From a virus (Duplodnaviria; Heunggongvirae; Uroviricota; Caudoviricetes): a DNA stretch of 2,683 nt. The notes below the pieces were generated by a model that ran no database searches, was not told the origin of the DNA, and was given only the letters and a program-made list of their open reading frames with translations. Where the stretch lies: the IMG/VR virus record IMGVR_UViG_2609459824_000012; one strand, 5' to 3'. This document shows, piece by piece, positions 1-2,683 of the stretch. Positions within the stretch are counted from its first letter, which is position 1. The number at the start of each line of letters is the position of its first letter. The position numbers were made by a program, and so were the translations under genes.

Positions 1-317
1 TCTCTATTAATTCATAATGTTAAGGGGTGAACAGTTTCAAAAAAACTATTCACCAACTGTTCACCACTGTTCACCCTTGAAGCTCAATAAACAATCAAAA
101 AGGTGAACAGTGAATAGTTTGGTGAACAGTTCATAAATAACTGTTCACCCTATAATATACTGATATAAAAGATATTTATGACAGGGTGAACAGTGGTGAA
201 CAGTTATTCCATAAGTTTAATTTTTGCTATCGTCATTAGTGACCGATACACATGATGGCATCCAGTCTTCTGATTCCTCCGTCAGTGTCACGTTTGAACG
301 CAAACCGTGCTTCGTTT
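1..317. repeat. Direct repeat copy A: identical to 2367-2683 (period 2366 bp); holds the iteron array and the last 27 codons of the ClpP-like CDS
   Basis: Base-by-base comparison of 1-317 with 2367-2683 found no mismatch. The repeat runs to the window edge, so its true length is unknown. Confidence 0.95.
26..202. promoter_or_regulatory. Iteron array of P4 alpha-type octamers (TGTTCACC), candidate ori/crr-like replication element
   Basis: Perfect TGTTCACC on the plus strand at 58-65, 68-75 and 142-149; perfect GGTGAACA (octamer on the minus strand) at 26-33, 102-109, 121-128, 185-192 and 195-202; one-mismatch copies at 47-54 and 109-116. The core often extends to the 10-mer ACTGTTCACC. Two adjacent pairs (58/68 and 185/195) are spaced exactly 10 bp apart. 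AT-rich spacers at 76-101 and 150-183 could act as an unwinding region. TGTTCACC is the octamer I recall as bound by P4 alpha at ori and crr. Confidence 0.7.
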
Positions 318-1000
318 TTAAACACTTCACTTATTCCATTGATGCGCTTCTGTTCATTACCAGCAATATTTGCCGCTCCCTGTGGCGGTGTAATCATTCC
401 TTTAATGGTTTCCGGCATATGTAAAAAATCTCCTGTGCGTTTCGATTCAATTCGCGCCATTGCTCTGACGGATGGCAACAATTCATCAGCAAAACCGTGC
501 TTAAGGCATTCTTTCCCATCCATCCAGGTTTCATCCTCCAGCATGGCGGTAATTTCCTGTGCTGATTTGCCCGTTTTTCTGGCATAAGCAGGGATTAACA
601 CGGTTTCCACCTTATCCAGCAAATCAGCATAATCACGCATATCGCCAGCATTTCCGCCAGAGATACCCCACGGTTTATGGATCATCATCATGGCGTTCTC
701 CGGCATAACAACACGATCGCCAGCCATTGCGACAACCGAAGCCATTGAAGCCGCAACACCATCGATATAAACCGTAATGTCTGCCGGATGATTCCGTAGC
801 AGGTTATAGATGGCGATGCCTTCAAACACATCACCACCTGGTGAATGGATCCTCAGATTGATATGTGAAACATCGCCAAGGGCTTTCAGGTCTTCCGCGA
901 ACTGCTTTGCAGTAACACCGAAGCCGCCAATCTCCTCATAGATAGATATATCCGCCGCTCCGCGAACATCCGCCGCCTTAATGGTGTACCAGTGATTCAT
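236..1000 (-). CDS. ClpP-fold (peptidase S14-like) serine protease, 254 aa, with a ~80-aa C-terminal extension; prohead-protease-like
   Basis: The translation aligns by eye to the ClpP core: HSPGGDVFEGIAIYNLL matches the ClpP NSPGG...IYD segment, GVAASMAS matches the active-site GxAASMG serine motif, MMIHKPWG matches the MIHQP histidine motif, and GFADEL sits where the catalytic Asp is expected. ATG at 1000-998 is preceded by GGAGAG (plus 1007-1012) with a 6-nt spacer. The start overlaps the stop of the upstream 69-aa ORF (ATGA, 1000-997). Confidence 0.85.
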   Translation of the reverse strand: MNHWYTIKAADVRGAADISIYEEIGGFGVTAKQFAEDLKALGDVSHINLRIHSPGGDVFEGIAIYNLLRNHPADITVYIDGVAASMASVVAMAGDRVVMPENAMMMIHKPWGISGGNAGDMRDYADLLDKVETVLIPAYARKTGKSAQEITAMLEDETWMDGKECLKHGFADELLPSVRAMARIESKRTGDFLHMPETIKGMITPPQGAANIAGNEQKRINGISEVFKNEARFAFKRDTDGGIRRLDAIMCIGH

Positions 1001-1206
1001 TGCTCACTCTCCGATGCAAAACCACTCTGATTAAGCCAGGCGTTTACGGCATGCCTGACAATCTGCGCCACACCTGGTAATGGTTTGTCAGGATGATGAT
1101 TTATATGGTCGATCCTGTACTGCTTAAGGCGCATAACGGTCTGCGCATCCAGATGAACGGAACCACCCCTGATATCGCCCGTGTTCAGGTCATTAATACA
1201 ACTCAC
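997..1206 (-). CDS. Small hypothetical protein (69 aa), possibly a ribbon-helix-helix-like DNA-binding protein or protease partner
   Basis: ORF with a GTG start at 1206-1204 preceded by a strong SD (AAGAGGAAG, 5-nt spacer). Its stop overlaps the ClpP-like start (ATGA), implying translational coupling. The pattern SVHLD / AQTVMRLKQYRIDHIN / VAQIVRHAVNAWL is compatible with a beta-strand and two helices, but this is a weak call without a profile search. Confidence 0.55.
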   Translation of the reverse strand: MSCINDLNTGDIRGGSVHLDAQTVMRLKQYRIDHINHHPDKPLPGVAQIVRHAVNAWLNQSGFASESEQ

Positions 1207-1308
1207 AGTAACTTCCTCTTACTGACTAAACTGTGCACATTATTGATCGATAAAAGTGGTAGATAAACATATTTCTATCATAAAAATAGATTAATGAGAT
1301 TCAGACAC

Positions 1309-1331
1309 AAAAAAGCCGGATAAAATCCGGC
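1309..1331 (-). terminator. Rho-independent terminator (minus strand)
   Basis: On the minus strand: GCCGGA-TTTTA-TCCGGC hairpin (plus 1315-1331) followed by TTTTTT (complement of the A-run at 1309-1314). It lies about 100 nt upstream of the 69-aa ORF start. Confidence 0.65.
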
Positions 1332-1374
1332 ATAAATATCCCGCCATCTGAACACGTTTTGACACAGGCAACTC

Positions 1375-1387
1375 CACCTGGCAGGTG
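1375..1387. other. 13-bp palindrome CACCTG-G-CAGGTG, followed by iteron-like GGTGAAAAACAG
   Basis: Perfect inverted repeat seen directly, in the noncoding segment between the two minus-strand terminators. A related degenerate motif, GGTGAAAACAG, recurs at 1461-1471. Confidence 0.4.
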
Positions 1388-1582
1388 AAAAACAGATTTA
1401 TTTATATATTTCAATTAATTGCAAACTGGTCTAATGACAGGGAGAAAAAAATATTGTACAGGTGAAAACAGAAATAACTTTTAATTATCAATAAATTACT
1501 ACACATGCTGCCGCCGCCATGAAAATGCAAAAACCAGCCTTTTTCCGCGACGCTCCCGCCCCGTGGCAGGTCACTACACCGG

Positions 1583-1605
1583 GAGGACCCATAAAAAAGC
1601 CGGAT
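1583..1605 (-). terminator. Rho-independent terminator of the 81-aa/SSB operon (minus strand); possibly bidirectional
   Basis: On the minus strand: GCCGGA-GCAA-TCCGGC hairpin (plus 1589-1604, extendable by an A1588:T1605 pair) followed by a T-run (complement of A 1583-1588). It sits 25 nt downstream of the SSB stop (1631-1633). Its stem is the same as in the terminator at 1309-1331. Confidence 0.75.
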
Positions 1606-1630
1606 TGCTCCGGCTTCTGTTACTCGTTGC

Positions 1631-2053
1631 TTAAAACGGTATGTTATCCCCGTACGGATCATCATTTCCCGCCTGTTGTTTTGCTCTGCTCAGTGCATCA
1701 GTAGCCTGCCCCTGTTGGCCTTTTTTGCCGCCCGGTCGCGCCGTTCTCGCACTGATTACGCTGTCTGCGATACCCTGCCAGCCCTGCCGCGTCTCCCCGT
1801 TCTGTCCGGTCCACTGGCTCACCTGCATGTTACCCGCCACGCTCAGGAGTTCACCCTTGCGGTGCTTTGCCAGTGCTTCGGCCTGTCTGCCAAACGCCAG
1901 GACGGATAACCACATCGTCGCCGTTCCGTCATCTGCCTGGCTGCACGGAAGTGGGACCGCCATACTCGCCATCGTCATTTGTGTACCCTTGCTGGTGGTC
2001 TTTAACTGCGGGTCAGCCACCAGCCGCCCGTAAGCCGCTATCTGTGCTGTCAT
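1631..2053 (-). CDS. ssb: Single-stranded DNA-binding protein (SSB) homolog, 140 aa, compact with a short linker
   Basis: The translation shows OB-fold SSB hallmarks when compared with E. coli SSB: an N-terminal segment resembling VILVGNLGQDPE, a WLSVLAFGRQAEALAKHRKGE segment resembling [22 protein letters not shown], a WTGQNGETRQ segment resembling WTDQSGQDRY, and a C-terminal tip DDPYGDNIPF resembling the DDDIPF partner-binding tail. ATG at 2053-2051 is preceded by GGAGAG (plus 2062-2067, 8-nt spacer) and overlaps the upstream ORF stop (ATGA, 2053-2050). Confidence 0.85.
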   Translation of the reverse strand: MTAQIAAYGRLVADPQLKTTSKGTQMTMASMAVPLPCSQADDGTATMWLSVLAFGRQAEALAKHRKGELLSVAGNMQVSQWTGQNGETRQGWQGIADSVISARTARPGGKKGQQGQATDALSRAKQQAGNDDPYGDNIPF

Positions 2054-2295
2054 GCTGTCTGCTCTCCGGTTTTAACGTTGATGGTTGTCACCTGTTCCGC
2101 TTCGGCAATCTCCCGTTCTGTCAGCGTGGCAAAGTTTGCAGCTGCCGTTGTCATGAATGAGCTAATCAGTTCGGGATGTGCTTTCGCATATCCTTCCCCG
2201 GCGTTGCGGTCGATGATTTTTATCGACACCCTTAACCAGTGTTCCGTCAAATCAAGGGCGTGCGATTGTGATTTTTTTGTGTGCTTCGCTGTCAT
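2050..2295 (-). CDS. Hypothetical protein (81 aa), first gene of the SSB operon
   Basis: ORF with ATG at 2295-2293 and its stop overlapping the SSB start. The RBS is weak (GAGATAAAGCCT before the ATG). I recognise no family from the sequence. Support comes mainly from the operon layout, which mirrors the 69-aa/ClpP pair. Confidence 0.5.
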   Translation of the reverse strand: MTAKHTKKSQSHALDLTEHWLRVSIKIIDRNAGEGYAKAHPELISSFMTTAAANFATLTEREIAEAEQVTTINVKTGEQTA

Positions 2296-2340
2296 AGGCT
2301 TTATCTCACAGCAGTAAATTAAAATTTTTGCGTTTTAACC

Positions 2341-2568
2341 CTTCACCTGTTCACCTTTTGATATTTTCTCTATTAATTCATAATGTTAAGGGGTGAACAG
2401 TTTCAAAAAAACTATTCACCAACTGTTCACCACTGTTCACCCTTGAAGCTCAATAAACAATCAAAAAGGTGAACAGTGAATAGTTTGGTGAACAGTTCAT
2501 AAATAACTGTTCACCCTATAATATACTGATATAAAAGATATTTATGACAGGGTGAACAGTGGTGAACA
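2341..2568. promoter_or_regulatory. Upstream continuation of the iteron array (2341-2355) plus the copy-B iterons (2392-2568)
   Basis: CTTCACC at 2341-2347 and a perfect TGTTCACC at 2348-2355 lie just upstream of the repeat; the copy-B octamers are at 2392-2399, 2424-2431, 2434-2441, 2468-2475, 2487-2494, 2508-2515, 2551-2558 and 2561-2568. Read circularly, the array spans about 2341-2366 plus 1-205 and overlaps the likely promoter of the 81-aa/SSB operon. Confidence 0.65.
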
Positions 2569-2683
2569 GTTATTCCATAAGTTTAATTTTTGCTATCGTC
2601 ATTAGTGACCGATACACATGATGGCATCCAGTCTTCTGATTCCTCCGTCAGTGTCACGTTTGAACGCAAACCGTGCTTCGTTT
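2367..2683. repeat. Direct repeat copy B (second pass through the start of the 2366-bp unit)
   Basis: Identical to 1-317. Consistent with a circular 2366-bp molecule drawn past its junction or with a head-to-tail tandem array. Confidence 0.95.

Follow-up and report, generated by a model that had tools for sequence, protein, structure and literature searches.

The window analyzed here is the whole of JNPR01000109.1 (2,683 bp), a draft contig of Escherichia coli 2-005-03_S3_C3. Its minus strand carries a 254-aa open reading frame (ORF; positions 236 to 1000) and, 5′ of it, a 69-aa ORF with a GTG start (997 to 1206), both as reported in the first-pass annotation. The stop codon of the smaller ORF overlaps the ATG of the larger (ATGA), and Shine-Dalgarno-like sequences precede both (AAGAGGAAG before the GTG of the 69-aa ORF, and GGAGAG before the ATG of the 254-aa ORF). 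An intrinsic-terminator-like hairpin followed by a T-run (1315 to 1331, minus strand; −15.4 kcal/mol, z = −3.0) precedes the 69-aa gene by about 110 nt. A second terminator-like hairpin, followed by a U-run (1594 to 1620, minus strand; −18 kcal/mol, z = −4.06), comes directly after the stop codon of a gene for a 140-aa single-strand DNA-binding protein (SSB; 1631 to 2053, minus strand), which was identified with PF00436 (E = 2e-14), phrog_44, and existing annotation. An 81-aa conserved hypothetical gene (2050 to 2295, minus strand; PHROG match to phrog_1231, and annotation) overlaps the SSB start codon by 4 nt.

Two stretches of the window are putative noncoding signals. The iteron GGTGAACAG clusters in both orientations at 26 to 203 (directly 3′ of the primase gene) and again at 2392 to 2569, with one extra copy at 2347 to 2355; the window holds 19 matches, 10 per repeat unit, versus 0.69 expected by chance. 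Origins of Gram-negative PICIs are located 3′ of the pri gene (PMC6092414), and the cluster is a putative PICI replication origin. Over the iterons, Rfam returned only sub-threshold microRNA noise. The region from 1358 to 1598, with an 80-nt core at 1519 to 1598, is a putative cos-type packaging site by homology to prophage regions preceding terS: sequence 92 to 94% identical to it adjoins DUF1441 (terS) genes in sampled genomes, and the core has three copies in L001, the locus to which the window maps, including one upstream of the PICI terS and one upstream of the prophage terS.

The 69-aa gene (minus strand) is a real, conserved gene of the PICI backbone. It matched phrog_4934 (E = 2.1e-32), heads the PICI late zone, and has homologs of 69 to 70 aa in E. 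coli, Citrobacter, Enterobacter, and Yokenella; 24 alignment columns are invariant, and substitutions in the minus-strand frame cluster at the third codon position. In another PICI (L004), a homolog 88% identical to the 69-aa protein is annotated on the same strand and is followed, after a 96-nt gap, by three unrelated large proteins. Because the homolog precedes unrelated cargo there, the gene belongs to the backbone and is not a partner of the protease. Pfam, NCBIfam, and PDB profile searches found nothing for the 69-aa protein, and its AlphaFold2 model was poor (mean pLDDT, 61; pTM, 0.37), with helices at residues 21 to 37 and 45 to 61; a ribbon-helix-helix reading (short strand, two helices) is an impression only. 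Antisense to this gene, PGAP annotated a 57-aa ORF in complete genomes (1093 to 1266, plus strand). This ORF had no PHROG match, and in L004 it lacks an ATG start and contains an internal stop, with substitutions mostly at its first codon position; it is probably spurious.

Contig structure and the join

Bases 1 to 317 of the contig recur at bases 2367 to 2683 with 100% identity, forming a terminal direct repeat (repeat unit, 2,366 bp), both copies of which lie on L001 at 14049 to 14365/6. The window is made up of two blocks of L001, positions 1 to 318 (L001 14049 to 14366) and 319 to 2683 (L001 12001 to 14365). The blocks meet between 318 and 319, where L001 14366 abuts L001 12001 with no change of strand and 0 nt of microhomology; this contig-private join connects the two ends of the 2,366-bp segment head to tail.

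The join fuses the 3′ end of the PICI primase gene (coding sequence, L001 14265 to 16082) to codon 227 of a gene encoding a 637-aa protease/capsid fusion, and it falls at codon 228 of the 254-aa ORF. Native codons 1 to 227 of the fusion gene (320 to 1000, minus strand) were assigned from profile matches and from identity to the 637-aa protein: residues 1 to 227 of the ORF equal the N terminus of WP_001017075.1 (637 aa; 227/227 identical) and diverge afterwards. They comprise the ClpP domain (approximately residues 32 to 175; window 476 to 907, minus strand) and, as in the native fusion sequence, the start of the linker/scaffold region (residues 176 to 227, within 320 to 1000, minus strand). 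Across the join, the last 33 codons and the stop of the primase gene occupy 217 to 318 (minus strand), with identical translations (KTKHGLRS...DDSKN, then the stop). Residues 228 to 254 of the ORF (KNEARFAFKRDTDGGIRRLDAIMCIGH) and its stop (236 to 319, minus strand) read this same primase 3′ end one base off frame: the two stop codons start 19 nt apart (at 217 for the primase and at 236 for the 254-aa ORF), and 19 divided by 3 leaves a remainder of 1. What had been described as an ~80-aa C-terminal tail is therefore 52 aa of native linker followed by 27 aa of junk.

The ClpP fold and catalytic residues that the first-pass annotation had proposed for the 254-aa ORF were borne out by profile search and alignment. 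Pfam CLP_protease (PF00574) matched residues 32 to 175 (E = 2.6e-36; 125.6 bits versus a cutoff of 20.2). Aligned to solved ClpP structures such as 1y7o and 6hwm, GVAASMAS, MMIHKPWG, and GFADEL matched the Ser, His, and Asp motifs column by column, and Ser85, His108, and Asp172 fell on the GxAASMG, IHQP, and G(F/L)xD motifs of 1y7o, 6hwm, and 6pbu. Judged from these alignments, the match in fold and triad is far beyond chance.

The join itself was found in this contig only. A join-spanning query had no place with at least 80% coverage in 5,426 complete E. coli genomes, where the listed matches end at window position 319, and searches for the exact join found none in IMG/VR, GTDB representative genomes, or JGI metagenomes. 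JNPR01000109.1 is also the one contig on record with the exact 254-aa protein (KDW60377.1). The contig ends one base short of the branch point (L001 14366), the unit having been assembled apart from its flanks; its look-up entry gives “samples_with_this_contig 2,” and no paper turned up for the WGS accession JNPR00000000. C:CLP_protease:110 is a target of helper-embedded PICIs (PMC10111431), which prompted the idea that the join could be an integrase attachment site; this was rejected, since residue 227 lies outside the ClpP domain and the other side is the interior of the primase gene and not the end of an element. As to how the join arose, an assembly or library chimera and a real, strain-private tandem duplication or circle are about evenly balanced; with either origin, the 254-aa ORF is no conserved stand-alone protease.

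The native fusion gene and its satellite

In complete genomes, the native gene product is a 637-aa “ClpP-like prohead protease/major capsid protein fusion” with CLP_protease and Phage_capsid_4 (residues 335 to 634) domains. The 637-aa protein matched phrog_133 and scored 903.9 bits against NF045540 (“scaf_prot_MCP1”; cutoff, 475), and NF045542 (“head maturation protease, ClpP-related”) matched its residues 16 to 174 with 228.2 bits (cutoff, 120). The 254-aa ORF follows the native sequence only as far as residue 227 and lacks the capsid domain, so it is a truncated rather than a full-length NF045540 member. Window positions 319 to 1206 are present at ≥80% coverage in 177 complete genomes; among the rows sampled from this set, the 20 that extend over the protease part all bear the fusion protein annotation. 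At least 1,000 contigs on record carry the full-length fusion protein sequence.

These genomes overturn the description of the protease as stand-alone, as all of the complete genomes inspected continue its frame into Phage_capsid_4, to give 637 aa, and then terS. The supposed detachment from any capsid module is likewise confined to the contig cut: the 254-aa ORF lacks the capsid domain because the contig is cut at the join, and in complete genomes the domain is fused. Kinship with prohead proteases, by which the ORF had been characterized from its size and tail, does hold, with NF045542 above its cutoff and relatives that are fused to capsid or lie inside complete head modules (terS, terL, portal, protease, and capsid), a neighborhood survey in which the reading as a lone protease fails. 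One split relative is a 256-aa “stand-alone” protease between portal and capsid genes, overlapping the downstream 417-aa capsid ORF. The closest phage relatives are lambdoid/Stx-phage protease/scaffold/capsid genes (approximately 71 to 72% DNA identity), and in L001, the satellite fusion shares 57% identity with the surrounding prophage’s own fusion. A homolog search with the 227-aa domain was not used to derive a fraction of fusions: its best 120 homologs were all <400 aa, many of them “partial,” and a 100%-identical 637-aa cluster exists yet is missing among these 120, a list that seems not to be length-neutral.

The native gene resides in a Gram-negative PICI of E. coli, an assignment that bears out the satellite context suggested at first, with P4-type iterons, an SSB gene, and a primase all present. 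Gram-negative PICIs have four zones, and helper-embedded PICIs have been described (PMC10111431); five core components are recognized for PICIs (SatelliteFinder, PMC10085698). The gene content is int, HTH/AlpA, Bro-N, Icd, DUF4222, primase or RepA, SSB, fusion, and terS. The integrase (L001 18787 to 20025) has Phage_integrase and Arm-DNA-bind_3 domains. A 67-aa “helix-turn-helix transcriptional regulator” in L001 had no Pfam match at 1e-3, and a related episomal PICI (NZ_CP148328.1) carries an annotated AlpA family protein. The primase has D5_N/DUF5906/Pox_D5 domains, with the putative iteron origin directly 3′, and terS (DUF1441/phrog_141) follows the fusion gene. No further structural genes are annotated within the element (L001 ~9400 to 20190); it has no annotated portal, head-tail adaptor/connector, or terL, which places it outside the cfPICIs. 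The element interrupts a gpA-type prophage terL in L001 and L003, separating its GpA_ATPase and GpA_nuclease halves, and a terL integration site class, A:Terminase_1:245, is known among helper-embedded PICIs (PMC10111431). In L005, it lies at tRNA-Pro and is not prophage embedded, and NZ_CP148328.1, a 10,790-bp circular “plasmid,” is a whole PICI, a hint of helper-dependent induction and transfer.

Protease activity, self-cleavage, and a role in satellite capsids are suggested for the native protein by known prohead proteases and fusions. The polyprotein, laid out as a ClpP-related serine protease, a linker/scaffold-like region of ~150 aa, and an HK97-type capsid domain, would form procapsids that enclose its protease and scaffold part, which the protease would then cut away, leading to shell maturation. 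The satellite probably provides or alters capsid subunits and diverts packaging toward its own DNA, relying on the helper’s portal, terL, and tails; the 57% identity to a helper-type fusion, together with the satellite’s own terS and the cos-like copies, argues for this role in capsid supply and packaging redirection.

Readings of the 254-aa ORF

We are highly confident that the 254-aa ORF is not an evolved gene and that it consists of 227 codons of a PICI capsid gene and 27 out-of-frame primase codons, joined in this contig only. The best-surviving alternative, which we nonetheless consider improbable, holds that the join is real in 2-005-03_S3_C3, as a 2,366-bp tandem duplication or mini-circle, and that a capsid-less protease is expressed and functional there, for example by getting into procapsids of the helper or the PICI and upsetting their maturation. 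The join does have the topology of a circularized or tandemly duplicated unit, and the contig does stop at the branch point, but an in vitro-circularized fragment or an assembler cycle yields the identical picture. A collapsed real duplication or circle would give the same contig end, and the truncated ORF, which retains the full ClpP domain, the triad, and the native ribosome-binding site, may exist in one isolate; a tandem duplication would, however, leave an intact full-length copy too. The 2,366-bp unit includes the iteron origin, and PICIs of the same family can occur as circular episomes in assemblies (NZ_CP148328.1). Against these points stand the restriction of the join to one contig, with none elsewhere in the four collections, the lack of microhomology, and the tail, which as an out-of-frame read of another gene speaks for accident rather than selection. 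Marginally less credible again is the more specific idea that the unit would be an origin-containing PICI mini-derivative, with the resident satellite supplying the primase in trans and a capsid-less ClpP-type head protease interfering with the capsid maturation of helper or satellite.

It is very unlikely that the ORF is an ordinary prohead protease left in a decaying prophage, even though its closest phage relatives are the lambdoid/Stx-phage genes named above and the element lies among prophage genes in L001 and L003. What recurs is a compact, intact element of ~10.8 kb with integrase, primase/RepA, iteron origin, SSB, fusion, and terS; it is found at different sites (prophage terL and tRNA-Pro) and as a circular episome, and is therefore a satellite and not debris. 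The number of contigs that carry the full-length fusion sequence (at least 1,000) also counts against decay. Least credible of all, and close to dismissal, is the first-pass idea of a satellite-borne, defense- or toxin-like pair of genes, for a ClpP-fold protease effector and a 69-aa protein that regulates or neutralizes it, which found no support: the two ORFs overlap by ATGA and satellites often carry defense cargo (general knowledge; PMC10085698), but the protease forms the N-terminal part of a capsid polyprotein, the 69-aa homolog stands before unrelated proteins in L004 and is so untied to the protease, and PADLOC models gave no match for the 254-aa protein, the 69-aa protein, or the L004 cargo.

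With the 254-aa ORF read as a product of the join, the locus represents known biology: Gram-negative PICIs, often lodged in a prophage terL, that have cos-like copies and a terS of their own alongside a helper-like protease/scaffold/capsid fusion. Protease/capsid fusions in Gram-negative PICIs are already described and curated. The contig adds a caution, namely, that terminal repeats in short draft contigs can yield chimeric ORFs resembling novel stand-alone genes.

Comparison with known systems

The native gene is like the fusions of lambdoid (Gifsy/Stx-type) phages and PICIs, sharing their domain order and keeping the Ser/His/Asp triad. The window copy is unlike the NF045540 fusions in that it has 27 foreign, out-of-frame residues after codon 227 and, solely through the join, lacks the remainder of the scaffold and the capsid domain. 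Fold and catalytic triad are shared with housekeeping ATP-dependent ClpP, but the score against TIGR00493 was 63.9 bits versus an equivalog cutoff of 308.6, and the protein is a phage-type head maturation protease.

Satellite P4 has an alpha primase-helicase with TGTTCACC type I iterons. The present element resembles P4 in its D5_N/Pox_D5/DUF5906 primase, in the same iteron octamer adjoining it, and in an Icd-like gene; it differs from P4 in having no psu, delta, or sid genes and in a late zone made up of the capsid fusion and terS.

The closest likeness in overall plan is to Gram-negative and helper-embedded PICIs, with integration, Bro, replication, and late zones, the last of these with capsid and terS, matching the PICIs described by Fillol-Salom et al. 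in 2018 (PMC6092414) and by Tommasini, Mageeney, and Williams in 2023 (PMC10111431) and type A of PMC10085698. Where the present element has a ClpP/scaffold/capsid fusion, the model PICI EcCICFT073 has a capsid homolog of the lambda-E type; deletion of the EcCICFT073 homolog left interference unrelieved (PMC6092414), and the capsid gene has been reported to be dispensable for PICI transfer (PMC10111431). The cfPICIs are defined by portal, head-tail connectors, and terL (PMC10085698), all absent from the present element. [quoted passage not shown] As in SaPIbov5 (Ccm) and the cfPICIs, a satellite-encoded major capsid homolog here adjoins satellite packaging functions, a likeness in gene content.

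The 254-aa ORF and the origin of the join

By exact-protein look-up, the window is the entire contig JNPR01000109.1 of the draft assembly GCA_000703825.1 (E. coli 2-005-03_S3_C3), and the 254-aa protein (KDW60377.1) was recorded on this single 2,683-bp contig alone. Four co-oriented ORFs, all on the minus strand, encode an 81-aa protein (2050-2295), a single-stranded DNA-binding protein (SSB; 140 aa, 1631-2053), a 69-aa protein (997-1206; GTG start, preceded by AAGAGGAAG) and the 254-aa protein (236-1000), and are flanked by a non-coding, iteron-rich stretch. The layout described in the first-pass annotation was recovered, including the Ser, His and Asp motifs; the 69-aa ORF stop and the protease start share the bases ATGA. 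Window 2367-2683 was an exact copy of window 1-317 (317-nt terminal repeat).

Megablast against 5,426 complete E. coli genomes returned 100% matches in which the 2,683 bases fell on 2,366 chromosome bases in two pieces, with window 1-318 at 14049-14366 and window 319-2683 at 12001-14365 of L001 (a locus of NZ_AP040249.1). The chromosome annotation places a primase gene at L001 14265-16082 and a 637-aa [quoted passage not shown] (WP_001017075.1) at L001 10769-12682; in the contig, the final 34 primase codons thus abut codon 227 of the fusion gene (window 318|319), with both sides on the same strand and zero microhomology. The protease had been described as stand-alone; its residues 1-227 are the N-terminus of the 637-aa fusion protein (227/227 identical, divergence afterwards), cut at the join, and its supposed C-terminal extension (the final 27 residues) comes from translating the 3' end of the primase with a one-base frame offset. 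When 241 nt across the join were used as a query, no place with ≥80% coverage turned up in any of the 5,426 complete E. coli genomes, where the matches listed for it ended at window 319, and exact searches of IMG/VR, GTDB representative genomes and JGI metagenomes yielded no copy of the join. Whatever the origin of the join, the 254-aa ORF is a truncated gene private to one strain, and its tail is junk.

The downstream end of the 2,366-bp segment is connected to its own upstream end, a topology given alike by an assembler cycle, an in vitro-circularized fragment, an excised circle or a tandem duplication. Zero microhomology and occurrence on one contig only favor an accident. The window acts as a 2,366-bp "circle" whose right end stops 1 nt short of the branch point of the join, and the flanks are not part of the assembly of this unit; both points fit a collapsed repeat or circle and an artefact equally well.

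The native protease-capsid fusion gene

Pfam CLP_protease matched residues 32-175 of the 254-aa ORF (E=2.6e-36), and GVAASMAS, MMIHKPWG and GFADEL lined up with the Ser, His and Asp motifs in ClpP proteins of known structure (Ser85, His108 and Asp172), which upholds the earlier call of a ClpP fold with aligned catalytic residues. The protease domain is real and probably active. The full fusion protein carries CLP_protease (33-175) and Phage_capsid_4 (335-634), and matched phrog_133 and two NCBIfam models, NF045540 ([quoted passage not shown]; 904 bits, cutoff 475) and NF045542 ("head maturation protease, ClpP-related"; 228 bits, cutoff 120). The underlying gene is a capsid-protease fusion of a phage-inducible chromosomal island (PICI), already known and curated. 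Its exact full-length sequence occurred on at least 1,000 contigs. By contrast, the cluster formed around the 254-aa ORF at 90% identity held mostly "partial" fragments at contig ends. Window 319-1206 was matched at ≥80% coverage in 177 complete genomes, and the fusion-protein annotation was carried by all 20 sampled rows covering the protease part. The PICI fusion and the 675-aa fusion encoded by the surrounding lambdoid prophage (L001) were 57% identical, with all three catalytic motifs conserved.

Detachment from any capsid module, as claimed earlier, does not hold for the native gene, which is fused to Phage_capsid_4. The setting listed in advance as arguing against that claim was also found, because a 256-aa "stand-alone" relative (65% identical) lies inside a complete head module (terS, terL, portal, protease and capsid), its 3' end overlapping a 417-aa capsid ORF; the pair appears to be the fusion gene split in two. 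In some lambdoid prophages (L007 8001-10005, and also L008 and L009), the fusion was called as 256-aa and 417-aa ORFs with a 20-nt overlap, which may reflect a sequencing error, a mutation that shifts the frame or programmed frameshifting.

By analogy with phage protease/scaffold/capsid polyproteins, the native fusion would assemble into procapsids, from which the internal ClpP-type protease would then remove the protease and scaffold part. A helper-like capsid subunit, its own terS and cos-like copies probably let the PICI build or modify capsids and steer packaging to itself, borrowing portal, terL and tails. Interference with the helper persisted when the lambda-E-type homolog of EcCICFT073 was deleted (PMC6092414).

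The 69-aa gene and the non-coding regions

The 69-aa gene is real, since it matched phrog_4934 (E=2.1e-32), its 69- to 70-aa homologs (E. coli, Citrobacter, Enterobacter and Yokenella) share 24 invariant positions, and substitutions cluster in the third position of minus-strand codons. PGAP annotates a 57-aa "hypothetical protein" antisense to it (window 1093-1266, plus strand) in RefSeq genomes. This plus-strand ORF decays in L004, a locus with a different PICI; codon-position substitutions and PHROG matches indicate that the true gene in this stretch is the antisense 69-aa ORF. The 69-aa protein had no match in Pfam, NCBIfam, PDB or PADLOC, and its AlphaFold2 model was weak (two helices, mean pLDDT of 61). 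It had been suggested, as a hypothesis, to control the protease; a role as its dedicated partner is contradicted by L004, where an 88%-identical homolog is followed, after a 96-nt gap, by three unrelated large proteins. Hypothetical proteins of 843, 686, 918 and 104 aa (L004 1273-9237) there replace capsid and terS; none had a PADLOC match, and this late-zone cargo is possibly an uncharacterized defence or accessory system.

GGTGAACAG iterons, ten per unit and in both orientations, lie directly 3' of the primase gene (window 26-203 and 2347-2569; 19 matches in the window, 0.69 expected). We take the octamer to be that of the P4 type I iteron, TGTTCACC, and the cluster is likely the PICI origin. 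Between the SSB and 69-aa genes, non-coding window 1358-1598 was 92 to 94% identical to the region adjoining prophage DUF1441 terS genes in sampled genomes. Its 80-nt core (1519-1598) has three copies in L001, including those upstream of the PICI terS and of the prophage terS; beside the window copy, the three comprise L001 10665-10744 and 21820-21899. By sequence, the region resembles a packaging site of the cos type that was taken over from the helper and is present twice in the PICI. Two intrinsic terminator-like hairpins (1594-1620 and 1315-1331, minus strand) flank it and lie between the replication genes and the late zone, which comprises the 69-aa gene, capsid fusion and terS. This suggests that expression of the late zone depends on a separate promoter or on read-through.

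The PICI and its relatives

The element is ~10.8 kb long in L001 and L003 and encodes, in order, an integrase, a small HTH protein, a Bro-N protein, an Icd-like protein, DUF4222 and a D5-type primase, followed by the iterons, the 81-aa gene, SSB, the 69-aa gene, the fusion gene, DUF1441 terS and a 93-aa gene. At both loci (L001 about 9400-20190; L003 about 7870-18000), it splits the gpA-type terL of a lambdoid prophage, so that the ATPase and nuclease halves of that gene lie on opposite sides of the element. L005 has the same late module at tRNA-Pro, in an element where it follows a RepA-type helicase. NZ_CP148328.1 (L006, 1-10790), a 10,790-bp circular "plasmid," is a whole PICI of the same family (int, AlpA, Icd-like, DUF4222, primase, capsid fusion, tail assembly protein and terS). 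It has neither SSB nor the 81-aa gene and presumably represents a satellite, excised or replicating, that the assembly picked up.

A cfPICI was ruled out because portal, connectors and terL are missing, and a P4-like satellite because psu, delta and sid are missing. The element matches the Gram-negative PICIs that Fillol-Salom et al. were the first to describe (PMC6092414), the five PICI core components of SatelliteFinder (PMC10085698), and the four-zone Gram-negative PICI and helper-embedded configuration, including the terL site class, of Tommasini et al. 2023 (PMC10111431).
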